NCBI GenBank assembly: GCA_010405405.1
Contig: MU004240.1
Location: forward strand, 510,316-574,315
Origin: Microthyrium microscopicum
Taxonomy: Eukaryota
Direction of reading: 5' to 3'
Length of the DNA: 64,000 bases
Shown: positions 14,862-48,182 of the stretch, piece after piece
Numbering within the stretch: the first letter of the stretch is position 1
Layout: every line of letters starts with the position of its first letter
Translations under genes and position numbers: made by a program
Notes under the pieces: generated by a model
Told to the model about the DNA's origin: nothing
The model's database searches: none
What the model saw: only the letters and a program-made list of their open reading frames with translations

Positions 14862-15221
14862 TATTAAGAATTAAACCTAATAAATTCTTTAAGATAGGCA
14901 TTATAGCCTAAGTACCTTAGCTTAATAGCTATTAGAAGCTAATAGAGCTACTTCTTTAGCTTTAATATATTCTATAGTTAAGAGAACTAATAGGTTCCTA
15001 ACTATTATAATTAGTAGTTAAGCGTACCTCTAAGGTACCTTAGCTTATAGATAGACTACTCTAGCTTAGAAAGAAACCTTAGAGGTTCTTAAGTAATAAG
15101 ATAGAGGCTAAGGAATCTCCTTATAGTTCCTTAGTAATTACTTCTATCCCTATTTCTATATACCTAATCTATTAAGTATCTTATAACCTTCTTACCTACT
15201 TTATAACCCTAATCTCTAATA
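14862..15221 (+). repeat. 3' LTR
   Basis: Copy of 6486-6845, preceded by a purine-rich PPT-like tract (aggagaataa). Confidence 0.95.
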
Positions 15222-16285: not shown

Positions 16286-16455
16286 NNNNNNNNNNNNNNN
16301 NNNNNNNNNNNNNNNNNNNNNNNNNNNNNNNNNNNNNNNNNNNNNNNNNNNNNNNNNNNNNNNNNNNNNNNNNNNNNNNNNNNNNNNNNNNNNNNNNNNN
16401 NNNNNNNNNNNNNNNNNNNNNNNNNNNNNNNNNNNNNNNNNNNNNNNNNNNNNNN
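16286..16455. other. Assembly gap (170 N)
   Basis: Run of N. Confidence 1.
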
Positions 16456-17516: not shown

Positions 17517-18433
17517 GCATAGTTATTACTTAGCACGTTTACAAAAGATAGTAGAGTATAAACCGTTGTTACAGAGCAAACGTCAAGCTTACATAACCGT
17601 ATAATAACCGCTAGCTAACCGTTCTCTGGGCCCAGAGACCGCCGCAAATGGTGAAGAGATCAGCCTGCCAGGCATCCATTTGGAAAAGCCAGATTACACT
17701 CTACATTCAAGTCTCAATGAAGTTGACACGAAGCTAAAAAATGACTCTGATTATCCGCAAGACTAAATCAGCTCGCTTCAATTGATTAGACTGTCTTTTG
17801 TGTTTAAAAAACTGTTAGTCCCTTTCAGGGGCATTGTTTACAAGTTTTGCGTGGTATCACCTCCACGGGTTTAAGTGTCTAGTAAACCGTGGATAAGATG
17901 CGCGGTCCGAAGTTTACAGCCGGATTTTAGAATTATAGCTCATTTTGTTGGCTCGTGGTCAGGTCATGCAGTGATAACCAAATGTGGACGCGCTTATCCC
18001 ACCTGATGGCCTGTAAGTTGCAATCTTATCACTCCTGCATGATGATGCTCAAATCTGCTTGGCTTGAGGCTGGGACTAGTATGGTTGGTACAATCAGAAT
18101 TTAAACGAATATGCAGTAGTGCCATAATCAAGATTGGCGATTCGACCGTTGCGAAGTGAGGCTGAAAGGCTGAAACTACATTGCGCAGCGGACGGAGTAG
18201 AGCGATAGGGTAGTTGCAACTTCCTCGTGAGGGGCGGTCAAAATGCTTGTTAATTGCTTATTGGGATATTTTGGTATTGATTTTTTCTTTGAGTTGAGCG
18301 CTATAATACATTGTACATCCGCGCTGAAAGTTTCTTTGCGACTACAAGCAATTTGAAAACCTCCTCGCCAATTTCGAAGATATGACATATAATTGCTAGG
18401 TGAACTGCAAACTCTAAGCTATTAACCGCTTCC

Positions 18434-26750: not shown

Positions 26751-27043
26751 GGTTATATTAGGTAAGTCGCTGTATCACCAGAGTCAATCGTTGAACATTC
26801 AAATTGTCCTGGTAATGACCATAAACATAGTGCATACAGCGTCTCTGTTCCCCCAAGCAAGAAACCCAAGCTGTCGGACTATTTTCGCCCCTCAAGTGCA
26901 GGTGGATATGATGGTTGTCGAGAACCGGAGCTAGCGGAAGCTGTGCCTGCCTGATAGACAATTTGAACTGACGAGGAAGCATGTCCCGACCCTTTGATTT
27001 GTCAGCCCTGAGACAACCACACATCATTATACTGTCTTACCTA

Positions 27044-27684
27044 CCATAGCGTGGGAGGGGGGGTAGAGCAAATGATGTTGAATAGTTTCAAGATAGACAT
27101 TTTGGTAACATGAAGTTCAAAATAGTGGCTTAGGAGGCTAGAATGTCTCGAATTAAGATTATTTTTTAACGATGTCTAGCTAGAAGGTGTCTTAGTAGCT
27201 AGGAAGGATCACGATAGGAGATAAAGAAGGAGCAAAAGTCATTATAGGTAGGAATAAGCAAGGGAAGCTTTGGATAGTCTATATATACCAAAAGTGCATA
27301 TTTGCATAATTAGTATTCGTAAACCTAGTAGAACTTTGACTGCTAAATCTTGCTCATAAATAGAATACGAGCCTAACCTAATTCGTAGAGTAAATTACCG
27401 TAATATAAAAAATCCTAGAATGAAGTTTGTTGTCCTTATTTCTACTAAGTAAATTATAACTTAATGCTCTGAAAATTGCCTAAATAGGCTGTTTTTTTTT
27501 AATATCTTATAAAGCTATGACATTATCTTGACATGATTTTTTATAAAAATCCTATTAACTCTTAGTCATAATATCAGAATCTGGTATGAATTCCTTAGGG
27601 GATACAGTGGAGAGAACCCTTTTATAAAATAGTAGAGATATAATAGTAGACATTATTTGCTCTACCCCCCGTTACACGCTATAG
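27044..27684. mobile_element. 641-bp MITE / non-autonomous Tc1-mariner-type element
   Basis: 35-bp terminal inverted repeats (27044-27078 vs 27650-27684; 30/35 matches). TA flanks both sides. The interior is AT-rich and non-coding. Confidence 0.8.
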
Positions 27685-27773
27685 TATTCATAGTCCTTAT
27701 TTGAGGTCCGCAACGACTCCCGCTCTTAAGGTCCGCACCATGTCTAATTCCAAATATTCCAGTCAGTACAGCC

Positions 27774-28856
27774 ATGCCAATTCCACGACGGTCTTGCAAA
27801 GCATGCTTCATGGGGAAACGGAAGTGCGATCTCGGACGTCCACATTGCGGAAGATGCCTCAGAAACTCTCAATCCTGCGATTACCCTTCTTCACCAGAAG
27901 ATGATACGTGCGAGTTCAGCAACAATGGCTCAGATGACTTCCTGGTTGCACAGCACTATCTGCAAGGCTTTGGAGACAACAATACAGCTTTGCAATTCAC
28001 TTTGGACAAGATCAGTCCTTTAAGTGACGAAATACTATATCCAGCTTTACCAAATATGGTTGGCAACCTCGGCGAGTTGCAGCCTGTCTCGGGTATCACA
28101 CAGAGTTATCAATGGGTCGTTGAACAACTAAAAAGCTACCCAGCAGCGTTCGCTCAAACTGCTGCCACAGTCTTCATACACTCCACTTCATACTGCAGTG
28201 AAGTTCCACGAGACATACGGGCAGCGTTTGGCATCTGCGCTGCATCCGTCTCCATGGACGAAAAAACTGAATCCATGATTTATCGAGCAATAGATGCAGA
28301 AGCTTCAGATCTGCTTAGATCAAGGTCTGATACCACCCTTAAAGAGGATCTGGCCAATATACAAGCTATGGTTTTATACCAATCTATCCGGTTATTCCAA
28401 GGCGATTTAAAACAGAGAGTTCTAGTACAACAGCAAGAAGTCCAGCTGGAATCAAAAGCTTTGAAGCTTCTTCAGCGCGCGAAGCTCGAACTAGAGTTTG
28501 TTCAACCAAGCTGGGAACGCTGGATACTGACGGAAAGCATTCGACGCGTTGTGGCGGTTCTATACATGTTATATGCCATGAACTCTGTTTTCGAGGAAAA
28601 TATCTGTCGCAATCTACCAACGCTGACATTCCTGCCTGTTTCAAGCAATTCGTCTTTCTGGCAGTCTGAAGCGAACTATCTGCAAAACCACGATGGCGAA
28701 GAAACTGTGAAATATGGTGACTTTTCAGAAATTTGGCTCGTCTCCCCTCACAGAAAGCTTGATCCGTTTGAGAAGCTGCTTCTGGTAGCCTGTAAAGGAA
28801 TTGAACCAGTTGAAGCACTGAGCTCTCTCGCGTTTGTAGAATCACAGACTGCATGA
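27774..28856 (+). CDS. Zn(II)2Cys6 fungal transcription factor
   Basis: CKAC-x6-CDLGRPHC-x2-C-x6-C binuclear cluster; C-terminal WERWILTESIRR motif; intronless 360 aa. Confidence 0.92.
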   Translation: MPIPRRSCKACFMGKRKCDLGRPHCGRCLRNSQSCDYPSSPEDDTCEFSNNGSDDFLVAQHYLQGFGDNNTALQFTLDKISPLSDEILYPALPNMVGNLGELQPVSGITQSYQWVVEQLKSYPAAFAQTAATVFIHSTSYCSEVPRDIRAAFGICAASVSMDEKTESMIYRAIDAEASDLLRSRSDTTLKEDLANIQAMVLYQSIRLFQGDLKQRVLVQQQEVQLESKALKLLQRAKLELEFVQPSWERWILTESIRRVVAVLYMLYAMNSVFEENICRNLPTLTFLPVSSNSSFWQSEANYLQNHDGEETVKYGDFSEIWLVSPHRKLDPFEKLLLVACKGIEPVEALSSLAFVESQTA

Positions 28857-29306
28857 TTCGGTTTGTTCTCATGCCTTGTAATATTGCGTAGCACACGATT
28901 ATGGGTCAGATCATCAATTGAAATGGCGCTGTCCCATCAGCTTCGCTGGCACCTCATCTGCTATCGCCCGTAAAAAGCTACTTCATCATGAATTTGTTCG
29001 CTCTTGTTGTGACCTCATGATCCCTGTCGGCACGCCTGGCTGCGGGCATCATGTAGGCTATAATCTGAGGCCCGCACCTTGCCATCTCGTGGATATTCTC
29101 AACGGCTCAGTGGTACCTTCAATTCAGAGCAACATTCCTTTCATTGAAGCCTTTTAGTACCTAGGTACCTAGGTAGTATTCAGCTCAGTCCAGCAGTCAT
29201 TAGACCTGGAGTATAAAAACTTTGCTACGCCTTGAGAATCAAGATGATATTTCAGTTTCGACCAATTTTTCTCTATTTGCACCTTAAGCCAGACTAAGTT
29301 TGCACA

Positions 29307-30540
29307 ATGGTTCCAGCAACAACTCGATAGTGGACGTTGGCAGTGAAGCCTACGGGCATGCCGGTTCTATCTGGCCTAAATGCAACTTTCCGACTGGATA
29401 CGAAAACACTTCCACAGCTAGAAGACGATCAGGTATTAATCAAAGTCCTGTACCTATCCAACGACCCAGCGCAGCGAATATGGATCGATCCTCAAATCGA
29501 ACCCGACCGTCTCTACACTGAGCCCGTTGAAGTGGGAGACACCATGCGCGTTTACGGCGCCATTGCGCAGATCCTCAAATCTCCATCACAGGATTTACTC
29601 GTCGGGACGCTTGTATCTTGCACAGCAGGCTGGTACGAGTACGCTGTCATTCCAGCCAAGGACTGTGCTCTTCTGAAGTCTATTGATGGCCTATCACCCA
29701 CTCACCACATGGGCGTCTTTGGCACTCCCGGTGTCACAGCATACTATGGAATGACTGATATCGTAGATGCTAAGCCGAGCGATACTGTCGTCATAAGCGG
29801 AGCAGCAGGGGCCGTGGGCTCAGTTGCTGTACAGCTTGCGAAGAATGTTTTGAAATGCAAAAAGGTGATCGGTATCGCAGGTACCGATTCGAAGTGTAGA
29901 TGGGTGGAATCCCTAGGAGCAGACCTCTGTCTCAACTACAAGAGTACCACATTTAAGGAAGATCTGATCAAGGCGACGCATGGATTTGTTGAGGTATACT
30001 TTGACAACACGGGAGGGGAAATTCTGGATTTGGTGAGCTTTCTTTTTTTCAGATTTATCATACGTGCTGCAGCAGTCGATTACTCACTAAAGTCCTCGAT
30101 GTACCGGTTTGGGCAGGATTTCAGCAGAGTATCGGCTTCTCATCACTGTCCTGGCTAATCCCCCCTTCAACGATTTCATACTAATAGATCAGATGCTCAC
30201 ACGAGTAAAAAGAGACGGCAGAGTGGCTGCTTGCGGCGCCATTGCCGACTATAATGCGACCATGCCATCCGGGATCAAAACTTGGTATCATGTAATCGCA
30301 ATGAGGCTTCGGATTTGCGGTTTTGTGGTAACGGACGCCATTCCGTCGGGCAGGTACTCAAAGATCACTGACGAACTAATTCGAGGTTTCAAGGAGGGAA
30401 AGATCAGAGCAGCCGAGCATGGACAGACCATAATTTCCGCAAATTTCGAGGATATTCCAAAGACTTGGATGATGCTGTTCCGCGGCACCGGCACTGGTAA
30501 ATTGATCACTGAGCTTGCCAAACCCGACTTTACTCAATAG
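29307..30540 (+). pseudogene. NADP-dependent MDR oxidoreductase (prostaglandin/alkenal reductase-like) with in-frame stop at codon 8
   Basis: Reads MVPATTR*WTLAVKPTG. Motifs YLSNDPAQR, SGAAGAVGS, YFDNTGGEILD, CGAIADYN and GKLI are present. Intron at 30032-30192. TAG at 29328-29330. Confidence 0.8.
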
Positions 30541-33392
30541 CTGGTGAGAAAATCTCATTGAGCATAGCAAACTCCGGGTTGGCAAAAGGACTGGTAATCT
30601 TCCATTCAGTGCGATTTTGGTTGTCTGCTATGTTTGTTACTGAGTCTTCTTCCTCGCTTTGCTTGGCTCCCCATCGAGGGCCCTGGGAACTAAAATAGCT
30701 TTCCATCAAAAAGTTCGATGGGAGACATCTTGGGTCAACCGTCATGGGAGGCCGAGTAAAGTCAAGGGGTTCTCGCTTTCTGTCTGGGTGCTTACTTGAA
30801 AGTGTTAATGTGGCAGATATTGGATAAAAATCTTTGTTACACGGAAATGTTTGTTAGCTTAATCACAATCTTTATTGTCAAACTATTGGATCTTCATCTC
30901 GTTTCGCCCACTTCTGGTTCACTGAACATATGCCATTCAATAGCTTTGCATTATATAGTACACTATTAGCATTGCAAAACTTGAGCTATCATGCGACAAT
31001 GATACTTGATACCACATCAGTTAGCAACTGGCTTGGAGGGCTGACTTGGTCAACATAAAACACCTTCTACCTTCATTGTTGACAGCAAGCAAGTGGAGTG
31101 GAAAATCATATGCAACCACTTCGGTCCCAATTACAGACCTTGACGCAGGAACAAGCCATTTTGCCAAGAGAGTTTAGACAAGTTGATGATGCAAACCAGG
31201 GAAACATAAAGTATGCCAAGTATACCTCGGACAATTGTATGATAATCCTGACCTGTTGAGTCTCAAAATCATCTCAATACAGCATTGCCTCTAGGGGAGG
31301 AGACGAATTGAGTAGTCCATGGGAGCGACCAGCCTGGCCATGACAACGCGTCGATATTGACTTTAATCAAGGCCTAGAACTTTACTCAATTCCAGGTTCT
31401 TGGCAGAGCTTACCGATTTCTTGGCAGAGTCGTACCGAATTTTGGATCCTCATATATGGAGGAGCTTTGACAGGCTGGCGGGATTGGTGCTATTGACTGA
31501 GGTCGAATATCCGACGGTAGTTGGTGTACGGAATATATCAAGTCCGCCAGCTCATGTGACAAGCTTTGACAAATGCATTGTCAGGACAAACCAAAGTTTT
31601 GTTTAGCGTAACCAAAAGCTGCGATTTGCGATTGAAGATTGGTATGGAGGGTTGTGCTCCGTGTCAAAGAAATGGTCAGTTGCGGTTTTCATGGCCAGCT
31701 ACCTGGTTGAGAAGGAGTCCGAGGGCTCATATACGAAGCACCGTCGTCCCATGGGGGAAGAAATATATCCTCCAATCAATGGGGCAGAAAACAGTTTGAG
31801 ATGCCCGATTTGGAAACATAGTTAAATTGAGGCCTAGGCCATGCCCATGTATGTATCAAGACATCCTTGTCATGCAACTTATTCTCAAGATAACGTCAAA
31901 TCTAGAAGCGAAAGACGAAGATAAGCATCAAATCCCAAGTTTTTGCTAAGAAATCTTGGCCAGTCTTAGCTATGGCTTGGATTTGGTTAAGCTTCATTGC
32001 CGTGAGACCCGAGCATAATGCCAAGTTGTGATTGATCTCAGGGAATACTTGGACTTCAGCTCTTGAAGTAACTACAACTTGTGATATCAAAGAGCTGTGA
32101 GCCCCCCACTTTCATGGCTAGAACATCACACAAGGAAACGATCGCGCTATAATATAAAATGAATTAAATAGCGAGCAAATTGAAACTCAATAACAAAGCG
32201 GTGCTTGAGAGCTGAAGGACATAGTGTCAACGTCAGCGTTTTTCCAACGAGTAAGATCGATCCAATTTATGTATTGCGACATGGACCAGGAATTTGTTCT
32301 CCAGATCGACGAATGAGGCCCTCCGTAGATTGTCTTCATGGTTTCGGGAAAAGGCAAAGAATGGGCGAACTGATTGACCATCCGCAAGAACTGCAATGTC
32401 TAACCACCTCCTATACTGCATCACTGAATGTTCTGCTCCCCATCAAGCGCGCTAATCTCCATATAATCCGCTGGGATGTAGTGATGTTGCCACCCAACTG
32501 AATGAGGCTTTATTGTGGTTGAGGAAGTTAATGTTCTTGATATAAATGATATTCAAATGATCGGTATATTTGATTCTCTCAAGGGCTTGATCCGGATTCC
32601 GGTACCTGTCTGTGCAATTCTTTTTCAAAACAAGGAGCATTACTTAAAATAGTATGTCAAAGCAAAATATGGCTCTCACATGGTACACTCCAGGCATATT
32701 TCAATCTAAGCGGAGCATCTGTATGATATTTCTCACGGAGACGGAATATTTCTGCATCGCATGATGCCCAATGAAATGGTTCGAGCTGTCATTTGAGCAT
32801 CCAGCTTTACCAACGGACAATTCTCTTAGCGTGCCCCAATTTCCAGATACCGGGGGAGTTTTGAACATGCATAGTATGGTTCATCATGAAGCAGCCTTAT
32901 GGCCAACTAATGAAAATATTCAGAGTTCTCTCCCATCGAAGTCGATGGCTAACAACGTACCTTATATCAAGAATACACCTATCATCTCACTAAAAATTAT
33001 AGATATCATATAGCGTAGCGAACGCTGTGCGAAAGAATAATGTCCAAAAGAGCAGCATCGATGGTAGCGAACGTAGTCGATGAGAGCACGCCCCATCTGG
33101 TTTGGCATGCATGGTTGGACTGGGATTGAATTAGCAACCCAATATCAGGTTGCATGGTGGCAACCAAAACCTATAGTTTTAATAATAATAGAATTTGGCA
33201 TATCCGGAGCAGCCAGTTTGAGAGGTCATACCAGCCTTGAAGACTTGTTACGAGAATTTGCTGTGACCAGCCGTGTATATAAAGACACCTTCTTCTCCTC
33301 CAAGCACTTATTCTTCATCAGCCAGCTCATTCAATTCAATTCATACAGTCACTACCAAGTTCTTAACTTACCTTTCACTTTCTACATTCAAA

Positions 33393-34391
33393 ATGCTTTT
33401 CACCCAGACCATCCTCGCTGTTATCAGCTTCGGCGCTGTCGCCATGGCCCAGAACCGTGGTGAAATCGTACGATCACTACACACTTACACCTTCTGATAA
33501 TGTTTTACTAATGCATCTGTAGCGCCAGGGACATCAAGAAATCCGTCAGGCAAGCTTGTTTTTTCTGATCTGATGGCAATGTTATACTAACAAAGCTCAG
33601 GGTAGAAATGATATCAGACAGGGTCGGCAGTAAGTTTTAGTCGCTGCGTGTGGTTGTTGCGCTATATCACAAATTGGTCAAACCCGACCAGAATGATATT
33701 TTAGCTCATCAACCGCCAACACTGCACAATCAAGCGATTAGAGGCTAACAAACACGCAGAGATATCCGCCAGGTACTACTTTCCGAGCATCTTCGTCAAC
33801 GCCAGGGCACTCGATGGTTCCCATCGTTTGCCCTGTGTCCTGTCACCAAAATATGAGAACAACTCTTCGAAGAATCTTATACTTACCTCTTACAGGGACA
33901 TTACGATATCAACCACGGTGAATACCGCCAAGTAAGTCACAAATTAACATTCAATGTGATTATGAACTAACAAATTTCAGGGACGCCAAGGTACGACTCT
34001 GCCGTTTTGAAACCTTCATCAGTTCCGGCGTTGTTTGATATTCTGTCAAATGCCTCCTAAGCGATGCTGGGACCCTCAAACCAATCCTGAGTGTACACTA
34101 ACGACGTCGTAGATCTCCGCCAGGGACATCAGGACATCAGACAAGTAACTAGGACCTCTCCTTCGACTAAGTTATATGCTAATTAACTCTAGGGACGCCA
34201 AGACGTACGCCAGGGTCGCCAGGAAGTTCATGAGTACGAATTTCCCAATCAGAGTGCTGTTGTTGACTGATGAGATGCCATTGAATGGCATTTCGGCACA
34301 TCGGCAGCAACATCTCAGTCATGAGCCCACACTAACAATCTTCAGTGGCCGAAACCAAGGCAACTACAACAACAACGGACGTCATTACTAG
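33393..34391 (+). CDS. Small secreted heptad-repeat protein (102 aa) encoded by 9 micro-exons
   Basis: Exons 33393-33467, 33523-33549, 33601-33629, 33760-33772, 33896-33931, 33981-33990, 34113-34144, 34193-34233 and 34346-34391 total 309 nt and splice to one open frame. TATA-like TATATAAA lies at ~33276. Confidence 0.85.
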
Positions 34392-35302
34392 AAACTTCCT
34401 TGGGAATGATGGCTTCGGTCTAGAGAGTGCACTGGGGCACTAAACAAAAACTTCACTTCGTCTTGGTATCTACCTTTTATATTTTGAATACAAACCTTTT
34501 GATCCTTAAACCGTTCTTACCTTCATTGGCATTGGATAAGTAATATATTGGGTGCTTTGTGTTGACGTTGATTGAATATTTTTTGATAGAGCCAGAACAA
34601 CCACAGAGACACAAGCTCGCCACAACAAGCTCAAGGGGCAGGGCTCAAAATATACTCTCCTACAGTCCTTTGAAGCATTACATGACCGGTAGCAAAATAA
34701 TTGGGCCAATTCCGTTCAGAATGAAAGGTCGTCGTGTACTGCGCTCTAGTTCAGGGGCTTTGTTTACTTTTAGTGATGGATCACTATCAGGCTCCAACTA
34801 GTATATTCTATTCTGTATGCATAATTCAAAAAGATTATGATGTTCAACAAGATCAACTTCGAAGATTCAGTTACTCTTTCATAAAGTTCGGGGAGGTATG
34901 TCGCTATTTTTGGCAAAAACGATATTTTCAGATCTCATGTGACGTAAGAGACCTTGTACCAATGGTAGCACAGATTAAGTAACTCCATAACTAACTTTAT
35001 GTCGGAGAGGTTATCGAGGTGCTAGCTCTTAAGCTGGTAACAAATTGCTAGGGCATAATTCACTGATGTTGTCGAGAAATGTTGCAGTGATGCTGTCTGA
35101 ATAAAGAAGGTAATTAGGGGATTTGACAATACATGGTGATTAGTGGTAATCTGAAAGTACGATTTTTGCTGTGGAAAGCATTACCAAACTATGGCATAGA
35201 TTATGATTTGACACGGTACCCATCTTAAAAGGTTATCTGCTTACAAAATGTCGAACAATTCAGAGTTTGAACTTATTCCGTAGATAGGACGATGTGGCCT
35301 TT

Positions 35303-35925
35303 GCACTCGATGGCTCCCATCGCATCACATGGCTCCCATCTGACCTGAATAAAATATGAGCAAAAAGCAATTGAGCTTCCTCTTGTTATTCAAGCTTAGG
35401 GAAACTATTGCCATCGCATCCGATGGCTTCCAGAACATTCAATGGCTCCCATAGCATGATATGGAACCCACCCCATTTTTCATAGTATTAAGCAAAATCT
35501 CAAAAGCTGGTATACTCTCTATAATGTCAGTATCGGCATCAGGCTCAAACCCCCATCCCATTATACATGTATGTCGCCCATATTACTTGGTCAAACCTTG
35601 AGCAGATTTTGGCAGAAAAGAGAGATTTGCACTTCAGTGGCTACCTACTATCTGACTCAATAATTCGTGCAGCACATTGTGGATTTTTTGACCCAAAAAG
35701 TCCTACAAGTTTTTTATTCTACCAGATAGAACGTTGGAAGCACATTCATCCAGATTTCAATAACAGAAGTCATCTTTCGGCGCATTTGATGGCTCCCATC
35801 GCATCTGATAGTGCACATCGAGGGTAATTGAAATCTGCAGAAATCCTCCGTCTGCTTCTCATTATCTTTTTGATCATGCTCCCATCGCACTCGGTGATCT
35901 CCACAGCAGGCTATGGATTCTGTCA
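35303..35925 (+). repeat. Clusters of a 19-bp unit (gcactcgatggctcccatc consensus)
   Basis: Tandem pairs or triples at 35303-35340, 35416-35472, 35782-35819 and ~35868-35924. The core CGATGG-ctc-CCATCG is self-complementary. Confidence 0.75.
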
Positions 35926-37131
35926 GTGGAAATGTCCTCAGGGGGCTTTAGAAAATGTTCGCTATTAGCATATATTTCCCCAAAAAGAGTCCCTTCTGAT
36001 GAGCGAAATGAACTTCTTAACCCCCGAAAATCTAATCATGCCTGCTATAATGTAACTTGTTCGTGAGACAGGACTGAGTTACAAAAGTTTAAATAAGGCA
36101 CGGGAATTTAAGCTTTCAGCGTTTGCTGCCAAGTGGCAGTGCGTAGTGATGGACAACAATGAAGCTACCTACTATTTCGATTGATAGGCTCTAGCCACCT
36201 TATTGTCTGAAAGTTTACAACTCAGAGTATGCCATTATACTAGGATGTGTCTTAGCTAGGTACCTCCCTAGGTAGGTACTTAAGGTAGAGTTGTTGACAT
36301 AGTTATAGCATCACTGGCTGTTTTTATGCTGAAGTTTGAAAGTTGAATTAGGCCTTTGCCAACATATTTTCAACAGCACTCTTCTCAACTGAAAATGCCA
36401 TTCTTCAGGCGATTTGCGTTCGCTCTCAATCTGTCCATCCATAATTGAGCAGGTCCAGCTCTATGACCGGCGAAAACCGCCACGGAGTAAGAGTGGTCAT
36501 CTGCAAACACGATCCACACCCATACTGCCGGGTTACTTTTACTAAATCATGCCTAGAAGTTTTGCTGGTTATCCGGGAGTATCTCGTGTCAGAGAGCATG
36601 GGTTCAGCACCAGGGCCCATGGACCCTGGCATGGTTTGTTGGTGATACCTAGATATATCGGATATATTATGTACGTCATTGCATGACCAAAAGCGGGAAG
36701 ATGCATGGATTGTGGCTGGATTTCCACAGATCTACCTCCTCGTGATTGATATTTTGTTGTCTTTGCAAACAAGACCAAGCAAGATATCAGTAGTAGAACC
36801 AAACAAAGCAAGTGTAATAAGGTACGGTAGTAAGATACTTGCTTGGCAGTCAAGGCAAGAGCGCAACAAGTCCATCCAGTCGTAGTTGCCCCCTCCACCA
36901 TTTGCTCCTGCCTGCCCCACTCACACCAACCCCTTCGCAGCTTCCCACATGCTGTCATTGTTCCAAGCTTCCTTCCATCCTCTTATCCCAGCTCCACCCT
37001 ATCAATTCTGCTCTAACTTCATCTCTACGTTTTATTCAACTTTGCTATCGCCACTTTACATCCTGATCTTTCTGTATCGACCATTCTGCAAAACCCGACT
37101 CCGCGCAAACGGAACCACAAACACCACAACA

Positions 37132-37941
37132 ATGACCTCTACCGAACAACCACTGCACTCCCCACCCAGCGCAGGAAGCCCTCCTAAGCGGCCCAAGGGT
37201 GCGTCCCTTTTTATTCCATCCCATCAGCATCTAACAAGCCATAGGTATCTTAAAGAACCGCTCAACGTCGAACACGAATGCCTTCCCCCCAACCCCAGAT
37301 CCCACCGATGCCGAACGCCAACTAGTCCTCGAAAACACTCTCCGTAACGCCGGCGACGCCGCCCGCCGACCCTCCTCCACCCGCGGCTCCACTTCACGTC
37401 GCGCATCGCACGCTTCTGATGGCGAAAATAGCCCACGCCTCAAATGGGACGAGGCGAACCTCTACCTCGCAGAGCAAGAGCGTGAAGCGGCGGGTGAACG
37501 GATGAAGATTGACGAGCCGAAGACTCCATTCGCGAAACAATATGACCCGGATGTAGATGACGTGGAAGTTGATGCGGAGGGATTAGTTGTGGACGAGATG
37601 GACGCAAAACAACTTAAAAAGCCGCGGGGAGGTAATAGGATGGAGGACATTCCGGCCTTTGAATTGGGGGAGCCGGAGGTGGATGTGGAGCAGCATGTGA
37701 GTACGCCGGAGAGTGAGAAGAGGGTTATGGTGGAAGAGGGAATGGGCGGTACGGAAGAGCCGACCGGACCAGCCGGTGAAGATGAGGTTGAAAAGCATCG
37801 GAAGTTTGAGGAGATGCGTAAGAAACATTATGAGATGAAGGATGTTAGGGGATTACTCGGGTAAGTTATTTCACGCGGAGTTGTTATGATGGTACTAATT
37901 ATTGCGATAGACACCCGGAGTTTGTTGATGAGGACGAGTAG
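37132..37941 (+). CDS. GLC8: Protein phosphatase 1 inhibitor-2 (Glc8); 3 exons
   Basis: KGILKN, LKWDEANL, MKIDEPKTPF and FEEMRKKHYEM motifs; introns at 37199-37244 and 37861-37910. Confidence 0.92.
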
Positions 37942-38209
37942 TCGCATGTTTTCTTGATTTCGGCTCGCCTCAATGCACTTTACGGAAAGATTGATATGGC
38001 GCTCGCGCGCTATCTTTACAACATGTTGGTGTAGTAGGCGTCTTACTACGGGGCGGTATACCCTTTGCATGTCACTAGGCTTTTCAACTGTCAAAATATG
38101 AACGGAGATCAGGACTGGTGTCGGAGTTGGATACCTCGAAGTATTAGCATAATAACGAATGAATCACAACTCGAATACATCCACGCCATCTTGTTCATTG
38201 ATCTAGCTA

Positions 38210-39706
38210 TCAACCCGACTCCTCAATCTTGTCCCCAGGTACGTCCACAGCTGTCTCCATAACAACATCCTGCTGTTCGACTGCCTCCGCCAACTCAGCA
38301 CCCAGACCACCACCTACCTCAGCGCCTGCCACTGCTACTCGATCCAAGTTCCCATAGCCCTTCCCATTCCTCTTCTTCTCTCCTGGCCCACTCCGATACT
38401 GATATCCCCTTATTCTTGGTCCCGCGCCTGTCTTGGCCGGCAACTCAGCCTCATAAAGCTCGTTAAATGCAATGACATCCGCCTCCCAGGTGCCCGCTTT
38501 GATACTGGCGCGGATGCCAGCAAAGAAGCGGTGCATTATAGCGTGGTTGTGTAATTGCAAAAATGTCCAACCGAGCATTTCTTTGGCGCTTAGTAAATGC
38601 TGCATATATGCGCGTGTGCATGTATCGCATGCGTGGCAGTCGCAGTTCGGTGAGAGGGGTTCTAGCGAGGTGTTGTGGATGGGCAGTGCGAGATCAATTG
38701 CTAATGGTTCTGGCGTGGTACTGTTGGATGACGGTGAGGGCGGTGGGAAGCTGAATGATAGCGCCAGTCCTGCATCGCTAGCCTCGCCGATGAAGGGGAT
38801 GGTGAAGATGTCAATACCGGCGTTGATGTGTGATAGTATGGTGTGTGGAGAGGATGGTGGAAAGAGTGAGAAGCGTGGGAGGCTGGCTAGGGAGTCTGGA
38901 ATGCCGGGGAGGGCGATTGGATCATAGATTGCTAAACCCGATATATTACTGTGGTTGGTGAGATCAGAGAGGTAGAGTTGCTGTTGCTCGGGTGCGATGG
39001 GTAGGATAGGCGCGAAGATTGGTGGGAAGGGGGTGTCCGTTTCGGCATCGGTTTGGGCTCTGAGGGTGCGGTCAAGCCATGTGCTGCTTCGGTCAAGTAT
39101 TTTCTCGGTGCGTTTAATGCTGCGTGTTGTGGTGTATACTACATCGGCCGGTGCGATGAAGATATCGGGCTGAAGAACGGTTGCGGCTTCTATATAGTCG
39201 TCCACTTTTTCATGGCGGAAGCCAACGGAAGTGTAGATGGTGAATGCCTCATTCGAGTTGGTCAGCGGCGCATCGACGGGTATCGGTCGTCGAAGGCCAA
39301 GTATGAGCAGCGTATCGTCGGGCTGGGTGGTGAATCGACGTAGCCGCGATAGATTTGGTAACGGAGGAATGTTATATATCGGTGGCGTCTGCTTCGGTGC
39401 TTTATCGAGGACTATTTGACATAGAATTAGTTGGGTTGTCGCATTGTGAAGAGATTTCATGACTGCCAACTTACAGTCCTCAATAGGTAGATATACACCA
39501 GGTATATGCGTGTGCTTTGCCTGAACGTCTGGCGCGATGTGTGGTATGATTCCTCGCGATGTGGTAGCCACAAAGCCTGGGGTCAATATCGCTTTTCGTT
39601 GAGGAACAGATAATCGACCTATTCTGGGTGTAGCACGCGCCGCTGCACTTAGGATGGTGAATGAAAGCATCTCGACAGGAAGCTCGGATAGACGAGATGT
39701 ATCCAT
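38210..39706 (-). CDS. QTRT2: Queuine tRNA-ribosyltransferase accessory subunit
   Basis: RIGRL..TPGFVATTSRG.IPH, TSVGFR, Zn site CDCHAC and YMQHLLSAKEMLGWTFLQLHN; probable in-frame intron ~39474-39415. Confidence 0.88.
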   Translation of the reverse strand: MDTSRLSELPVEMLSFTILSAAARATPRIGRLSVPQRKAILTPGFVATTSRGIIPHIAPDVQAKHTHIPGVYLPIEDCKLAVMKSLHNATTQLILCQIVLDKAPKQTPPIYNIPPLPNLSRLRRFTTQPDDTLLILGLRRPIPVDAPLTNSNEAFTIYTSVGFRHEKVDDYIEAATVLQPDIFIAPADVVYTTTRSIKRTEKILDRSSTWLDRTLRAQTDAETDTPFPPIFAPILPIAPEQQQLYLSDLTNHSNISGLAIYDPIALPGIPDSLASLPRFSLFPPSSPHTILSHINAGIDIFTIPFIGEASDAGLALSFSFPPPSPSSNSTTPEPLAIDLALPIHNTSLEPLSPNCDCHACDTCTRAYMQHLLSAKEMLGWTFLQLHNHAIMHRFFAGIRASIKAGTWEADVIAFNELYEAELPAKTGAGPRIRGYQYRSGPGEKKRNGKGYGNLDRVAVAGAEVGGGLGAELAEAVEQQDVVMETAVDVPGDKIEESG

Positions 39707-40317
39707 GACTTATCGGCCACGAAGACATCAACTATGTGGTGCGTAAAATTTCGAAAAATCGCGAAGTTGAGATGGAGTTGAGTTGAAAAAGCACTATGGC
39801 TGCGGGCCGTCCCGTAGCTAGCGTCTGCTTCCGTGTTAGGAAGGTACCTCTGTATGTACACATGTCTTGACGGTGCAATGCCACAAACCTCCAGATAAAA
39901 GTTGGTTATCTGCAGAGGCATGGCCAGAAAGTGATCAGGAACTTTTCAAGAGGAAGTTCTCCGATATATGATCTAATTGTTAGGAACTAAATACCGGTAG
40001 CACTTTCAATATACCTAACATGCGTTATCACCATTCAATGTGTAACTTGTAAGCAAAATAACAAGTACAATAGATTTTCAAATCGTCCCATATTCTGAAT
40101 AATCGAGGTAGAAAACTCATACTGATGTATGGGCCAGAACACCGTTCGTAGATGCAAACCCAGTCTATGAAAGGCAACATACTCTATGCAAATGGTCTAC
40201 AAATGCTCCCAGGTTCAAAACAAGATGAATCGGATCCGGAAAAAAAAGCCAGAGATATCGTGTCAAGAAGCGCACCCAACTCGGGAACATATATAATTCT
40301 CATCGGATTCTAAGTAG

Positions 40318-44975: not shown

Positions 44976-46013
44976 ATTGTGAGATCTGTGTATGGGTAGG
45001 AGTTGTTGTTTTGTAGATTCTGATTGTCGCCTCGCTGTCGTGTCTGCATAGAGTCTTTAAAGATCAGAGGTGACGTCCTTGACTATCGGACATGAGACGC
45101 GGGGGCACGTGAGCTGATCCTTTAGCGTGAGAAAGGCAATAAGGCACGTTGATTGGTGCAGCATCACGTGTGCACCCATGCATGTTTCAACTCAGTTCAG
45201 TTTCAAGTCTGCCAAGAACAACAATAACATCACCTTCTACTATTCACAATTACGCTTTCATTCTTCGGGGGTCTACCTATATACCTTTGTCCATATCTTC
45301 TCGGAATTGGAATAGCACTCCACGCTGTGAGGCTATGACACGTAGAACATCTGGCGTCGCGGCTTCGCTTGCTGCATGAAACAACATCAAATCCTCATTG
45401 AAACATACCGTCACCCAAGAACTTTTCTTGGATCTGATCTCGAGTCACTTAAGGATGCAGTGTGCATCTGACGAAGTTCTACAAATTTACAGCGTAGGGC
45501 CTATTTTGAAATAAGCTAATGTGGAACACTACAATATTGAAAATCTGACGACTTGCAAGCTCTTGAGGTTTACAATCGAGTTTTATGACAACCATCAAGT
45601 GCGAAGAGAGCCATCAAATGCGAAGGAAATGTTCATCCAGTGAGTAGACCTTAAGGTACATGAAGGCTCTTGATAGTGACCGGCCAGGGCGGCCACTTGA
45701 GCAAAACTAAAAGTAAGACAACAGCCACCCTGGATGCTATAGGCCGTCATTTGTGTTAGCAGCCTGAATTCAACTTGATTTAAGCCTAAGTACATCTGAT
45801 CGTGCCTCATTTTTGGTCTTGATCTGCATGACATCAAAGTGCTTGAACAGGCAACCATTTGTATCAACTTCATTCACAACTCCATTGCATCCCTCTCCTT
45901 ATTGGACTCATATCATCGCACAAGTAATTCACTTCCACCGATAATAAGGTATGGACCAAAAGTAGCCCATACAATTGCCTGGAACAGATACGGGAGTGAA
46001 AATTCACTAAGCC

Positions 46014-48182
46014 ATGGAATCAAACGATTGCACTATCTGTCAACAGATCTGGCTTCGATTTACCGACCCCACTTCTACACATGAAGTAAACTTTGGGTCT
46101 TTCGCAGAAGCAAGTTCAACAACCTGCCTTGATCATGGTCCCCTTACTCGAGAATTCATCGCCTATTGTCAGCCTTCAAGCCATTCCCGTATCCAAGCAT
46201 CTACAGATATAGGCATCCGAAAAGGTTACCCAGGACATAGCGTAACCTTATACCAATCAATCTCGAAAGCAGGCTTGTACTGGGGTCTGTCTCTTGTGAA
46301 CCGAGACAGTGACGCTCAACACCACTCCATACAACCAGGAACGGGGCGAATCCTAGACCCGGATTTTGTTGATCTCGATATCGTGAATACGTGGAAGAAG
46401 GACTGTCTCAGAACTCACGGTGCCAAATGTGTGAATCCAATGAAAATATGGAAGACCCAGCCAGCATGGCTGGTAGATGTTGAGAAGAAGTGCATTGTTC
46501 CTGGCGCTGATTGTGGGCCGTTTGTTGCACTGAGTTATAGAAGCGGAAAAGATCATGAGCTTGCGTTAGACTCATCAGTCATGGCAGAGCTACTGGCCCC
46601 TGCTGCTATAGACAACACAGATCTTGGTCCATATATCAGTCCTATCATCCGCCGGGCGATCTTGTTGACGGCTGCACTTGGAGAACGTTACCTTTGGGTG
46701 GACGCGCTATGTATAGTCCACGGCGATTTTGCGTCGACAACAGAGCAAATCAACCTCATGGGCGCCATATATGCGAATGCCAATCTCACAATCATAGCTG
46801 CGGATGGGGATTCTCAAACTGGGCTTGCGGGTCTTGAGATCTCGTCTTCACGTGCACTCGAACAACGCATCATTCCATTTGGGGAGGAAACTATCACAGT
46901 TCGGAATACAAACATATTTTCGCTGGGGCAGGGTACACCATACTACGAACGTGCCTGGACATACCAAGAATACAAGCTGTCCCCACGAAAACTAATCTTC
47001 AACAAGAAAGAAGCACATTGGGAATGTCAATGCAGCGTCTTCCACGAAGAACTTATCGCCGGGACTGAAGTAGACAAATACATTGACCCTCGACTTTCAG
47101 TAATACTTGCAGGGTTTCCAGATATAGAGTCTCTAGACCACATTATAACAAATTATAATGACCGTAACTTGACCTATGACGAGGATGTTGTGGCTGGAAT
47201 ATCGGGTTTATTGTCTGTAGCCAGCAGATCATTCGAAGGAGGATTCCTGTACGGAATCGCGGAGTGCATGTTTGAACGGGGCTTGTGCTGGAAGCCATAC
47301 TGGAATCACACGAACCTGAGACGGAGAATTGCATCAAACCGATATGATGATAGTCAACTTCCTTCAGCTCCCGTTATACCGTCTTGGTCTTGGGTAGCAT
47401 ACCAAGGACTAGTACGATTCGGATGTGAAGCTGTGAGGATCAACGACAGGAAGAGTTGGACATCAGAAACAATACCGATTACCGAGTGGTACACCAGTGA
47501 TTCTTTGAAGAGCTCTTCACGGCGAAAGATTGAAACGACTTGGTTCAACAATGTGTCTTCATTCAAAGATCCTACTACACCTCTGCCAAAAGGCTGGACT
47601 CGCCACGACAGTTCAGATGAGGAGCCGCCAAAACAACCACGATTATGGCCTGATGGATGCCACGACCAAGTTTTTCGACACCAAAACATGCCTGATGACG
47701 ATTGTCCACTCTGGTATTACCCTTTTCCAGTATCAGATATTGACGAGTCGACCCCGCCGCGTTTGACAGAGCAAACGGCATATCTATTCGCTAAAACGAA
47801 GAAAGCCTGTGTATGGGCTTGCCGTCCAGATCATCATAGCAAGAAGGATAATCTTATCGATATCTATGGAGAATCGGGGGATAAGATCGGTACTCTGCAT
47901 CTGCAAAACGAGGAGCAATTGCAACAATTTACATCCACAGACGGCACTGAAAACCCAAGAGTTTCTATCGAGGTTGTTGCAATTTCCATTACTCGTCGTT
48001 ATTTGCTAACGTGGGACGACGATCTTCGTCAGTTTCGGCATCCTCAGAATACTAAAGAAATGTATGATGTGCTTTGGGTGACATGGAATGACGGAGTCGC
48101 GTATCGACAAGCGTGCGGAACAGTCCAGAAAAAGGAGTGGGAGATATTGGACTTGGAGATCATGAATTTGATACTGGGCTAA
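46014..48182 (+). CDS. HET-domain (heterokaryon incompatibility) protein
   Basis: WLVDV, FVALSY, LGERYLWVDALCI, MGAIYANANLTIIAADG, RAWTYQE and PSWSW; intronless 722 aa. Confidence 0.92.
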   Translation: MESNDCTICQQIWLRFTDPTSTHEVNFGSFAEASSTTCLDHGPLTREFIAYCQPSSHSRIQASTDIGIRKGYPGHSVTLYQSISKAGLYWGLSLVNRDSDAQHHSIQPGTGRILDPDFVDLDIVNTWKKDCLRTHGAKCVNPMKIWKTQPAWLVDVEKKCIVPGADCGPFVALSYRSGKDHELALDSSVMAELLAPAAIDNTDLGPYISPIIRRAILLTAALGERYLWVDALCIVHGDFASTTEQINLMGAIYANANLTIIAADGDSQTGLAGLEISSSRALEQRIIPFGEETITVRNTNIFSLGQGTPYYERAWTYQEYKLSPRKLIFNKKEAHWECQCSVFHEELIAGTEVDKYIDPRLSVILAGFPDIESLDHIITNYNDRNLTYDEDVVAGISGLLSVASRSFEGGFLYGIAECMFERGLCWKPYWNHTNLRRRIASNRYDDSQLPSAPVIPSWSWVAYQGLVRFGCEAVRINDRKSWTSETIPITEWYTSDSLKSSSRRKIETTWFNNVSSFKDPTTPLPKGWTRHDSSDEEPPKQPRLWPDGCHDQVFRHQNMPDDDCPLWYYPFPVSDIDESTPPRLTEQTAYLFAKTKKACVWACRPDHHSKKDNLIDIYGESGDKIGTLHLQNEEQLQQFTSTDGTENPRVSIEVVAISITRRYLLTWDDDLRQFRHPQNTKEMYDVLWVTWNDGVAYRQACGTVQKKEWEILDLEIMNLILG

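Follow-up and report, generated by a model that had tools for sequence, protein, structure and literature searches.

Fungal Kex2-processed repeat proteins (KEPs) and ustiloxin-type RiPP precursors have been described as small secreted proteins made of tandem near-identical units (PMC6339444, PMC7329392, PMC9769878), and the cores of KEPs are reported to be flanked by KEX2 (dibasic) cleavage sites (PMC9769878). Schistosome micro-exon genes (MEGs) likewise encode secreted products, with the coding sequence mostly in very small exons; as these genes are presented in PMC4350168, the exons are symmetrical (multiples of 3), which allows variation by exon skipping, and the class appears to be restricted to platyhelminths. 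Micro-exons of ≤15 nt are reported to be widely mis-annotated in plants (PMC8831610), and introner-like elements, described as longer than the regular fungal introns of 50-55 bp, have been documented in Dothideomycetes (PMC4457414).

We analysed a 64-kb stretch of DNA from Microthyrium microscopicum (Dothideomycetes), referred to below as the window. The best overall explanation of the locus at 33393-34391 (+), to which we give a probability of about 0.75, is a real coding gene with nine exons, eight spliceosomal introns, and a secreted heptad-repeat product. The tandem near-identical units of KEPs are found here (8 full heptads plus degenerate units), but the Kex2 dibasic sites that define KEPs are missing from the window protein and from that of a homologue on an environmental contig (L021). 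The window gene resembles the MEGs, as these are characterised in PMC4350168, in that very small exons make up most of its coding region. It differs in that only two of its seven internal exons have lengths divisible by three (exons 2 and 5, of 27 and 36 nt) and in that it has no sequence relation to them. Literature searches for a secreted tandem-repeat micro-exon gene in fungi gave no such gene among the matches listed, and the five-letter motif RQGRQ appeared in 3 papers, all unrelated.

The precursor genes of ustiloxin-type (dikaritin) RiPPs cluster with genes for modifying enzymes, for example DUF3328/UstYa or tyrosinase. The 64-kb window contains 61 ORFs of ≥110 aa, and a Pfam scan of 33 of them, which could miss short or intron-rich genes, gave no match to DUF3328/UstYa, tyrosinase, or similar enzymes. 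The genes nearest to the locus are those for a Zn2Cys6 factor, a zinc-type dehydrogenase, IPP-2, and TGT.

Gene model and reading frame

The nine exons listed in Table 1 splice to 309 nt, or 102 codons plus TAG, and the eight introns amount to one per 39 nt of coding sequence. The start codon in exon 1 is the first ATG of its frame. The seven internal exons measure 10-41 nt, and two exons of the gene are ≤15 nt and four are ≤30 nt in length. This structure had been proposed in a first-pass annotation of the DNA, and its coordinates, exon lengths, phases, and reading frame all checked, with the homologue backing the frame. The repeat register, which had been taken as a strong argument for the model, indeed holds across the phase 0, 1, and 2 junctions. 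Combinations of GT/GC..AG introns that are compatible with the nine given exon lengths number 36; the 12 listed are all open, and among these the heptad pattern is unbroken only in the combination first proposed. We infer splicing at the eight junctions from their signals and from comparison with the homologue. Short introns in fungi are recognised by intron definition, and exons of 10 and 13 nt would therefore be no hindrance to splicing.

Contigs of one sequencing run that fall on positions 27000-40000 showed 0 mismatches to the window in the pieces listed. These contigs also include spliced neighbours at 27761-30791 and 36249-39727; positions 32208-35245 are uncovered, which carries no weight either way.

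Table 1. Features of the locus and its flanks, in window coordinates
Feature	Position (strand)	Length (nt)	Intron phase	Description
Promoter and 5' leader	33270..33392 (+)			Conserved; TATA box TATATAAA at 33276-33283; TTCAAA before ATG
Exon 1	33393..33467 (+)	75		Start codon; 19-codon signal-peptide-like segment at 33393-33449; degenerate first repeat unit
Intron 1	33468..33522 (+)	55	0	GTACGA..ACTAAT..TAG; not in L021
Exon 2	33523..33549 (+)	27		Skipped in deposited model; heptad matched within uninterrupted L021 exon 2
Intron 2	33550..33600 (+)	51	0	GC donor CAG|GCAAGC; ACTAAC branch; not in L021
Exon 3	33601..33629 (+)	29		Common to deposited model
Intron 3	33630..33759 (+)	130	2	GTAAGT..GCTAAC..CAG; strong RNA structure; not in L021
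Exon 4	33760..33772 (+)	13		Micro-exon; extended to 33825 in deposited model
Intron 4	33773..33895 (+)	123	0	GTACTA donor; without CTAAC-type branch
Hairpin copy of motif	33813-33829	17		Copy (3 mismatches) of dispersed 17-nt motif; inside intron 4
Exon 5	33896..33931 (+)	36		End of block 1 and 5-residue unit N-H-G-E-Y
Intron 5	33932..33980 (+)	49	0	GTAAGT..ACTAAC..CAG
Exon 6	33981..33990 (+)	10		Micro-exon; common to deposited model; codons within uninterrupted L021 exon 4
Intron 6	33991..34112 (+)	122	1	GTACGA..ACTAAC..TAG; not in L021
Exon 7	34113..34144 (+)	32
Intron 7	34145..34192 (+)	48	0	GTAACT..GCTAAT..TAG; not in L021
Exon 8	34193..34233 (+)	41
Intron 8	34234..34345 (+)	112	2	GTACGA..ACTAAC..CAG; coding in deposited model; not in L021
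Exon 9	34346..34391 (+)	46		N/G/Y-rich tail ending in Tyr; stop TAG at 34389-34391
3'-UTR block	34487..34502 (+)			AATACAAACCTTTTGA; conserved in alignment with L021 3' flank

A collinear homologue on an environmental contig

A metagenome search with a degenerate two-heptad DNA pattern gave 50 loci, of which 48 were single chance matches and only two, L021 and L012, carried an array of the same repeats. These two contigs count as one homologue, because they are 100% identical over 1485 nt, and the comparative case is therefore made with one independent homologue. The L021 gene contains four exons, three introns, and 94 codons, and is collinear with the window gene unit for unit, both products starting with a putative signal peptide and ending in a C-terminal Tyr, with two sets of four heptads on either side of a 5-residue unit in between. 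They differ in that one L021 intron interrupts the putative signal peptide, which is encoded without interruption in the window gene, and in the length of the tail, which is 6 residues in L021 compared to 16 in the window protein. L021 is uninterrupted across window junctions 1, 2, 3, 6, 7, and 8. Its intron B occupies the same within-repeat position (Q|G) as window intron 4, and its intron C (51 nt) is 1 nt off window intron 5.

The residue is kept in 67 of 92 aligned codons (73%), and differences between the two genes at the three codon positions number 20/6/50, with pS of 0.654, pN of 0.173, and dN/dS of ~0.13. Conservation extends beyond the coding sequence to the TATA box, the 5' leader, and one 3'-UTR block; in the alignment of the 5' region with the L021 upstream sequence, column identity averages 75%, and long blocks are free of any change (blastn, 73% over 158 nt). 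In a tblastx comparison of L021 with the 64-kb window, the gene itself was the sole match. Judged from this sequence comparison, we conclude that 33393-34391 (+) is a genuine nuclear protein-coding gene on which purifying selection is acting.

The comparison reaches less far for individual repeats. In a permutation test of unit-by-unit repeat orthology, the observed identity was reached in 3260 of 20000 cases, which is not significant, and position-specific architecture is therefore supported only to the level of the 4 + 5-mer + 4 layout. Repeat identity within the gene (14.4/21 nt) is no higher than that between the species (13.6-14.3/21), which implies that the repeat units are not being homogenised and speaks for a protein that works intact, against a precursor.

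The deposited protein model is mis-spliced

The first-pass annotation had called this gene hidden, and this proved incorrect: GenBank KAF2665451.1 (UniProt A0A6A6U1H1; hypothetical protein BT63DRAFT_459027 of Microthyrium microscopicum, 148 aa) already models 33393-34391, the 10-nt exon included, in garbled form. The companion expectation that gene finders would miss the gene fails insofar as this model exists and holds insofar as the model is mis-spliced. KAF2665451.1 maps to seven exons, with the same start and stop as the nine-exon model and with 12 of the 16 splice sites and exons 1, 3, 5, 6 (10 nt), and 7 in common. It departs from the nine-exon model by skipping exon 2, by using a weak GTTTGC donor at 33826, and by retaining intron 8. 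The extension of exon 4 to 33825 causes KAF2665451.1 to lose the repeat frame, and exons 5-8 are out of that frame because of the skipping of exon 2, the extension of exon 4, and the retention of intron 8. As a result, about 95 of its 148 residues are foreign to the conserved protein. The ESM Atlas model of KAF2665451.1 has a pTM of 0.20 and a pLDDT of 0.52.

It is very improbable that the 148-residue product, which is the output of a gene predictor, is nevertheless correct, or that the repeat frame is accidental and only a remnant, decaying or non-coding, is left at the locus. In the deposited frame, intron 8 and a portion of intron 4 are read as coding, and L021 has no counterpart to either. 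In addition, the dN/dS of 0.13 and the third-position-biased change are found in the nine-exon frame alone, and the intact frame, start, stop, and promoter are kept in both species. Thus, as far as signals and comparison can tell, the public 148-residue model is mis-spliced.

A probably secreted protein of contiguous heptads

The product has 102 residues, with a 19-residue hydrophobic N-terminus ending in A-M-A and an 83-residue mature part of ~10.0 kDa (pI 10.7; GRAVY -2.23) that uses 11 residue types and contains 13 Gly, 16 Arg, and no Lys. The N-terminal segment has a GRAVY of 1.87 over its 19 residues and is conserved in L021, which supports its earlier description as signal-peptide-like; the description of a Cys-free heptad-repeat product is supported as well. 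Signal-peptide cleavage follows an A-x-A rule, and from the hydrophobicity and this motif, we predict with good confidence that the N-terminus is a cleaved signal peptide and that the protein is exported. The window protein contains 0 Cys and 0 KR, RR, KK, or RK, as had been noted for Cys, KR, and RR, and the four dipeptides also number 0 in the L021 protein.

The heptad reads R-Q-G-[RH]-Q-[DE]-[IVL]. A degenerate first unit precedes two blocks of four heptads, which are separated by a unit of 5 residues (N-[HN]-G-[EQ]-Y), and the protein closes with a short G/N/Y tail whose last residue is Tyr. In both species, each block keeps an exact 7-residue period through its four units, and the heptads are contiguous, without a spacer between conserved cores. 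Over the 16 heptads, Gly at position 3, a basic residue at position 4, D/E at position 6, and I/V/L at position 7 are each conserved in 16/16, Q2 in 15/16, and R1 in 14/16, with His instead of Arg at position 4 in half of the units. Pairwise comparison of the 8 full heptads gives 49/15/120 differences by codon position, and Arg in the repeats is encoded by CGC, CGT, CGG, and AGA.

We found no described family to which the protein would belong. The earlier remark that the family was not recognised is borne out by the lack of a Pfam match, whether to the deposited model or to pieces of L021, and of an annotated eukaryotic relative, with the deposited model and short exon pieces as queries. The exon-1 ORF matched KAF2665451.1 alone in a protein search, and residues 1-40 of KAF2665451.1 had KAF2665451.1 itself as sole candidate. 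A phmmer search with KAF2665451.1 against 1.84 billion representatives returned the query and an unrelated repeat protein (P0002), and a profile of the right-frame exon pieces, for which 451 candidates were scored, gave 3 matches, none clearly a eukaryotic relative. With the deposited model as query, a metagenome search gave 209 pattern matches, none confirmed, and the ESM Atlas gave no usable feature match and structure matches to trivial single helices. This apparent lack of relatives is weaker than it sounds, because the large protein searches used the garbled model or short exon pieces.

Two verrucomicrobial PG_binding_1 proteins with signal peptides (P0003 and P0005) resemble the window protein in having ~7 gap-free copies of a nearly identical heptad, R-E-G-R-Q-D-I, with 13 of 27 residues identical to the L021 piece (database E-values of 0.015 and 0.49). 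They differ in being bacterial and 336-346 residues long, and their heptads form a linker-like region ahead of a W/G-rich stretch and a peptidoglycan-binding domain. We consider this likeness most likely to be convergence. The only PDB sequence matches, which were weak (E 0.15-1.4), were to designed Gly-containing coiled coils in the same Gly/Ile register. In common with the design CC-Type2-(GgLaId)4 (PDB 7bim, 7a1t, and 7bat), the window protein has a 7-residue period and a single Gly in each heptad, with Ile placed four residues beyond the Gly and preceded by an acidic residue. By contrast, the design is synthetic, so that no homology is implied, and it has three or four core residues per heptad compared to one here, the window protein having Arg/His and Arg where the design has Leu and Ala.

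Structure and possible functions

As to function, we think a helical repeat protein that stays intact a better candidate than a precursor of peptides. Tentatively, and at less than even odds, we propose that the protein works intact as an extracellular helical repeat rod. With Ile/Val assigned to position a, Gly would occupy d, Arg/His e, and Asp/Glu g, which would give a narrow Ile stripe flanked by acid at g and base at e, the helix-pairing pattern of classical coiled coils. Two arms of four heptads each would be separated by the 5-residue unit, and the rod, being polycationic, would bind to itself or to anionic polymers of the wall or matrix. AlphaFold2, run without an alignment on a 31-residue piece of L021 exon 4, predicts a helix over residues 2-28 (mean pLDDT 85.9; at least 84 in 4 of 5 models); the method tends to make short peptides helical, and the prediction covers one short fragment of the homologue. 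The predicted two-copy complex of this piece had a score of 0.06, which counts neither for nor against pairing. Classical coiled coils combine a 7-residue period with hydrophobic residues at both a and d; the period is present here, but each heptad has one hydrophobic position (I/V/L, 16/16), and the other core position is Gly (16/16). That each heptad has one Gly and only one hydrophobic residue speaks against a stable coiled coil of the classical type, and in solution the chain may be disordered.

A disordered secreted polycation, whose charge and hydrophilicity would coat or cross-bridge anionic wall or matrix polymers or hold water, would make sense in a fungus that lives on leaf surfaces and has to cope with drying, and is consistent with the GRAVY of -2.23, the 13 Gly in 83 residues, the one hydrophobic residue per heptad, and the 11 residue types. 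The low ESM Atlas confidence points the same way, though it was obtained for the garbled deposited model. We nonetheless regard this alternative as unlikely, since the exact 7-residue period and the strict conservation of all seven positions exceed the needs of charge and composition, and AlphaFold2 gives a confident helix for the four-heptad piece. Less likely again would be a beta-sheet fibre or amyloid-like matrix protein in which the N/Q/G/Y tail is a prion-like end. Ionic self-complementary peptides with alternating faces form sheets, and in an extended chain, the six-residue stretch from one Gly of the heptad consensus to the next would present charged (R, D, R) and neutral (Q, I, Q) faces by turns; the tail of the window protein is also rich in N, G, and Y. 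However, this tail is unconserved, with 6 residues in the homologue versus 16, and AlphaFold2 gives helix, not strand.

The first-pass annotation had raised a pheromone- or RiPP-like precursor, like an amyloid or surface fibre, as no more than a possibility, and we consider it improbable that cleavage at single Arg or R-x-x-R sites releases short peptides from the protein, whether in a pheromone-, RiPP-, or KEP-like manner. R-Q-G-R does fit the minimal R-x-x-R convertase motif. Likewise, a putative signal peptide followed by tandem near-identical short units is the arrangement described for KEPs (PMC6339444, PMC9769878), but neither protein contains a single KR, RR, KK, or RK, and position 4 is His rather than Arg in half of the units. 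Moreover, the whole heptad is conserved, with no contrast between spacer and core, and cutting after every Arg would give mixed pieces of 3 to 12 residues. With no match to DUF3328, tyrosinase, or similar enzymes in the 33 of 61 window ORFs scanned, the precursor proposal is left unsupported.

Splice signals and the origin of the introns

A CTAAC/CTAAT branch lies 10-11 nt upstream of the acceptor in seven of the eight introns. The donors are GTACGA in three introns and GTAAGT in two, with one each of GTAACT, GTACTA, and the GC donor of intron 2 (CAG|GCAAGC). Seven sites of the form CT[AG]A[CT]-N3-12-YAG occur on the + strand of the locus, and all seven are acceptors of the model, intron 4 being the one intron without such a site; the - strand of the locus has one. 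Averaged over the window, these branch-plus-acceptor sites occur at 1.19 per kb, and on the + strand their density peaks at the locus (Poisson 2.3e-4); on the - strand, an AT-rich block has up to 9 sites per kb from composition alone. The proto-splice site CAR|GG, which is supplied by every repeat, holds four of the eight introns.

Because the homologue L021 has only three introns, the extreme intron load would be, on this comparison, lineage-specific. Four of the introns span 112-130 nt and the other four 48-55 nt, and it is a long one, intron 4, that has a within-repeat position in common with L021. Introner-like elements are present in a genome as multiple copies of similar sequence and have unusually stable predicted RNA structure. 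The RNA folding z-scores of the long introns were -4.41 (intron 3), -3.43 (intron 4), -1.74 (intron 6), and -2.34 (intron 8). Elsewhere in the 64-kb window, the introns have no copy except for a 63-nt match at 70% between intron 4 and positions 35303-35365. Among 55 intron pairs compared to shuffled controls, the best core z-score was 4.15; the alignments share splice signals alone, and the shuffled-control scores yield no convincing pair for intron-intron homology.

Taken jointly, the protein and its introns may represent a new secreted fungal family, with a minimal-core Gly-heptad helical assembly, that underwent a lineage-specific burst of intron gain, a combination that we hold to be doubtful. 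In such a burst, as many as six introns would have been gained within ~250 nt of coding sequence, aimed at the CAR|GG sites supplied by the repeats, and introner-like elements would possibly have been the vehicle.

Implications

About two-thirds of the public protein record for this gene is wrong, and a correct model was recoverable from repeat logic and one homologue. The 16 Arg, spaced 3-4 residues apart, would make the protein invisible to tryptic proteomics, and families of this kind may be systematically overlooked. As a 10-kDa, 11-letter, Cys-free basic protein in which the Gly-containing heptad is preserved perfectly, the product is a tractable object for the study of heptads with one hydrophobic residue. 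Two collinear orthologues with 8 versus 3 introns in ~300 nt of coding sequence provide a compact natural case for intron gain and loss, which bears on repeated proto-splice sites in Dothideomycetes. If a burst of intron gain did take place, this would be among the most intron-dense ascomycete genes known, with working exons of 10 and 13 nt.

Gene model and splice signals

The exons, lengths and splice positions of the nine-exon model proposed in the first-pass annotation were reproduced at 33393-34391 (309 nt, 102 codons plus TAG). In a scripted scan of intron combinations, with these exon lengths fixed, GT or GC donors and AG acceptors, 36 combinations fit; all 12 of those listed are open, and among these 12 the seven-residue pattern is unbroken in the first-pass combination only. 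The claim that the repeat register holds across phase 0, 1 and 2 junctions was borne out by the phases, which are 0,0,2,0,0,1,0,2 in order. The DNA of the repeats has drifted and the peptide has been kept: the 28 pairs among the eight full heptads show 49/15/120 differences at codon positions 1/2/3, and heptad Arg codons are CGC, CGT, CGG and AGA.

The donors are GTACGA (three), GTAAGT (two), GTAACT and GTACTA (one each), and a sole GC donor in the strong context CAG/GCAAGC. CTAAC or CTAAT is present in 7 of the 8 introns, with the branch A 10-11 nt upstream of the acceptor, and is absent from intron 4. All seven plus-strand branch-plus-acceptor signals at the locus are acceptors of the model (one signal lies on the minus strand), and the locus is the plus-strand maximum of the window (mean 1.19 per kb; Poisson 2.3e-4). 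These signals are support separate from the reading-frame argument; an AT-rich block elsewhere in the window reaches 9 per kb on the minus strand from composition alone, so that the signal count alone is no proof of the model.

Coordinates of the nine-exon gene and of other features (window positions)
Feature	Position	Strand	Source
Exon 1	33393-33467	+	nine-exon model
Exon 2	33523-33549	+	nine-exon model
Exon 3	33601-33629	+	nine-exon model
Exon 4	33760-33772	+	nine-exon model
Exon 5	33896-33931	+	nine-exon model
Exon 6	33981-33990	+	nine-exon model
Exon 7	34113-34144	+	nine-exon model
Exon 8	34193-34233	+	nine-exon model
Exon 9	34346-34391	+	nine-exon model
IPP-2 gene introns	37198-37243, 37860-37909	+	RNA contig 36249-39727
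Queuine tRNA-ribosyltransferase gene intron	39412-39474	-	RNA contig 36249-39727
17-nt motif GATGGCTCCCATCGCAT	30713, 33813, 35309, 35441, 35788, 42071, 45599, 50678, 62999		at most 3 mismatches
HET-domain (heterokaryon incompatibility) ORF	46011-48179		domain scan
KDM5/JARID-type histone demethylase gene (JmjN, ARID, PHD, JmjC, PLU-1)	55879-61327		domain scan

The deposited model

With the exon-1 frame as query, one database protein was retrieved, the 148-residue hypothetical protein BT63DRAFT_459027 of Microthyrium microscopicum (KAF2665451.1, A0A6A6U1H1), which seven exons of the window sequence reproduce exactly. The match places the window in this species or in a strain nearly identical to it. 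It has 12 of 16 splice sites in common with the nine-exon model, including both sides of the 10-nt exon. However, it skips exon 2, extends exon 4 to a poor GTTTGC donor at 33826 and retains intron 8, which places exons 5-8 out of the repeat frame. Thus, the gene is not hidden, as had been supposed, because its locus is already annotated, but its public product is largely wrong. Pervasive mis-annotation has been reported for plant microexons of at most 15 nt (PMC8831610).

A homologue on environmental contigs

Searches with the deposited model against protein databases and metagenomes gave no relative. Because the searches for relatives rest on a mis-spliced 148-residue query, short coding pieces and one DNA pattern, this is a limited negative for the nine-exon gene. 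The pattern, a degenerate match to two consecutive heptads, occurs in the window in exons 2 and 7 only (0 matches expected). Applied to metagenome contigs, it returned 50 loci, of which 48 have one match each, in an unrelated frame and due to chance. The other two, on contigs L021 and L012, carry an array of the same heptads; they show 100% identity over 1485 nt and are therefore counted as one homologue.

The L021 gene has four exons and 94 codons and is collinear with the window protein: the two share a similar kind of N-terminus and the same first unit, then two blocks of four heptads separated by a five-residue unit (N-[HN]-G-[EQ]-Y), and a Tyr at the end. The residue is kept at 67 of 92 aligned codons, with 20/6/50 differences at codon positions 1/2/3, pS of 0.654 (near saturation), pN of 0.173 and dN/dS of ~0.13. 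L021 coding is uninterrupted at the positions of window introns 1, 2, 3, 6, 7 and 8, which bears out exon 2 and its GC donor, the two micro-exons and the excision of intron 8. By this sequence comparison, the homologue settles the predicted reading frame. A TATA box, 5'-leader blocks and the ATG context are kept upstream (75% column identity), as is a 16-nt block of the 3' UTR; translated comparison of L021 with the window gave no match beyond the gene.

When the heptads of the two species are pooled (16 in all), the kind of residue never varies at four positions: Gly at 3, a basic residue at 4, Asp/Glu at 6 and Ile/Val/Leu at 7. Of these heptads, 14 retain Arg1 and 15 retain Gln2. Heptad identity within the gene (14.4 of 21 nt) does not exceed that between species, which implies old units that have not been homogenised. 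A one-to-one orthology of the units has no significant support, the observed identity being reached in 3260 of 20000 permutations.

A profile of right-frame exon pieces matched P0004, a 141-residue ORF with a 14-residue stretch 86% identical to the fungal heptads. This ORF, which outside that stretch resembles read-through of non-coding sequence, may be a third homologue. The profile also matches two verrucomicrobial proteins, P0003 (346 aa) and P0005 (336 aa), which have a signal peptide and about seven gap-free R-E-G-R-Q-D-I heptads, nearly as in the fungal protein, and after them a region rich in Trp and Gly and a PG_binding_1 domain. Convergence probably explains the likeness of the heptads.

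Intron load

Eight introns in 309 nt of coding sequence amount to one per 39 nt and to 69% of the gene span; neighbouring genes, judged from RNA contigs, contain between one and three introns apiece over some 3 kb. Since the L021 homologue has three introns, most of the load is lineage-specific, and gain cannot be told from loss by comparing the sequences of two taxa. L021 intron A lies within the signal-peptide segment, where the window gene has none; intron B lies between Gln and Gly in phase 0, the within-repeat position of window introns 2, 4, 5 and 7; and intron C is 1 nt away from window intron 5. Four introns lie exactly at CAR/GG, where a Gln codon meets a Gly codon; every repeat provides this proto-splice site.

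Four introns are 112-130 nt long and the remaining four 48-55 nt, and two of the longer group are much more stable as folded RNA than their shuffled versions (z-scores -4.41 and -3.43). Long, fast-decaying introner-like elements are documented in Dothideomycetes (PMC4457414), the class to which Microthyrium microscopicum (Microthyriales) belongs, and are a lead for the source of the extra introns. Against this lead, alignments with shuffled controls revealed no intron-to-intron similarity beyond splice signals, and no further copies of the gene's introns were found within the 64-kb window.

A schistosome-type micro-exon gene was ruled out, since just 2 of the 7 internal exons are symmetrical and such genes are apparently confined to flatworms (PMC4350168).

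Transcripts and surroundings

RNA-derived contigs of the same strain, from X1, the sole run listed for the species, cover the flanking genes, spliced and with 0 mismatches in the pieces listed. They do not cover 32208-35245, which counts neither for nor against expression; we infer that the nine-exon gene is spliced. A low-depth contig (depth 3.4) at 30907-31413 lies in a 5-kb upstream gap with no other contig. It skips 166 nt with CT..AC ends, corresponding to a minus-strand GT..AG intron, and may be an unannotated minus-strand transcript. A single contig at 36249-39727 spans the convergent IPP-2 phosphatase-inhibitor (+) and queuine tRNA-ribosyltransferase (-) genes, so that their 3' ends overlap or abut.

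A dispersed motif, GATGGCTCCCATCGCAT, forms a small hairpin (CGATGG..CCATCG) and has 9 matches in the window against 0.07 expected; three of the copies form a cluster downstream of the gene (35297-35818), and intron 4 contains another. At 35305-35328 the match to X1 contigs is limited to ~24 nt flanked by unrelated sequence on either side, which indicates that the motif is also in other transcripts. Window 1-18000 is AT-rich (GC 0.15-0.27 compared to 0.42-0.53 elsewhere), has no ORF of at least 110 aa and resembles a decayed repeat or a RIP-type isochore beside the gene-bearing part. The HET-domain ORF and the KDM5/JARID-type gene are ordinary neighbours.

Predicted protein and its possible roles

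Cleavable signal peptides follow the -3/-1 rule. The product begins with a hydrophobic stretch of 19 residues (GRAVY 1.87) whose last three are A-M-A (A-I-A in L021), and by these features the stretch can be read as such a peptide. The predicted mature part (83 residues, 10.0 kDa, pI 10.67, GRAVY -2.23) has only 11 residue types (Q16, R16, G13, N8, D7, I6, H6, E4, Y4, V2, L1) and lacks Cys, Lys, Ser, Thr, Pro and Ala; scans of it found no N-glycosylation sequon and no KR, RR, KK or RK. The residue counts thus agree with the earlier report of no Cys and no KR/RR sites. For the longest available coding stretch without an intron, a 31-residue piece of L021 exon 4, AlphaFold2 predicts a single helix spanning residues 2-28 (mean pLDDT 85.9). 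Placing Ile at a of a helical wheel puts Gly at d, Arg/His at e and Asp/Glu at g, with Arg and Gln elsewhere; this arrangement has the acid-g/base-e pattern of paired helices but lacks half of the usual core. The only solved structures matched by sequence are designed coiled coils that carry a single Gly in each heptad; the matches are weak (E 0.15-1.4), share the Gly/Ile register and show only that such helices can exist.

We tentatively favor, at a probability of about 0.35, a product that would act intact as a helical repeat rod, and that may pair with itself or bind anionic wall or matrix polymers. A mature protein that is instead a disordered polycation seems unlikely, and one forming a sheet-type fibre more doubtful still. 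Least probable is a precursor of short peptides, and no support was found for the RiPP- or pheromone-like role that the first-pass annotation offered as a possibility: the dibasic cleavage sites that define Kex2-processed repeat proteins (KEPs; PMC9769878) are absent, and the enzyme context is missing, with neither DUF3328 nor tyrosinase hit in the 33 ORFs scanned out of the window's 61 of at least 110 aa.

We found no description of the product or of its heptad motif in the literature. We regard the nine-exon product as a new family of a familiar type, the small tandem-repeat proteins that fungi secrete; its gene structure is unusual.
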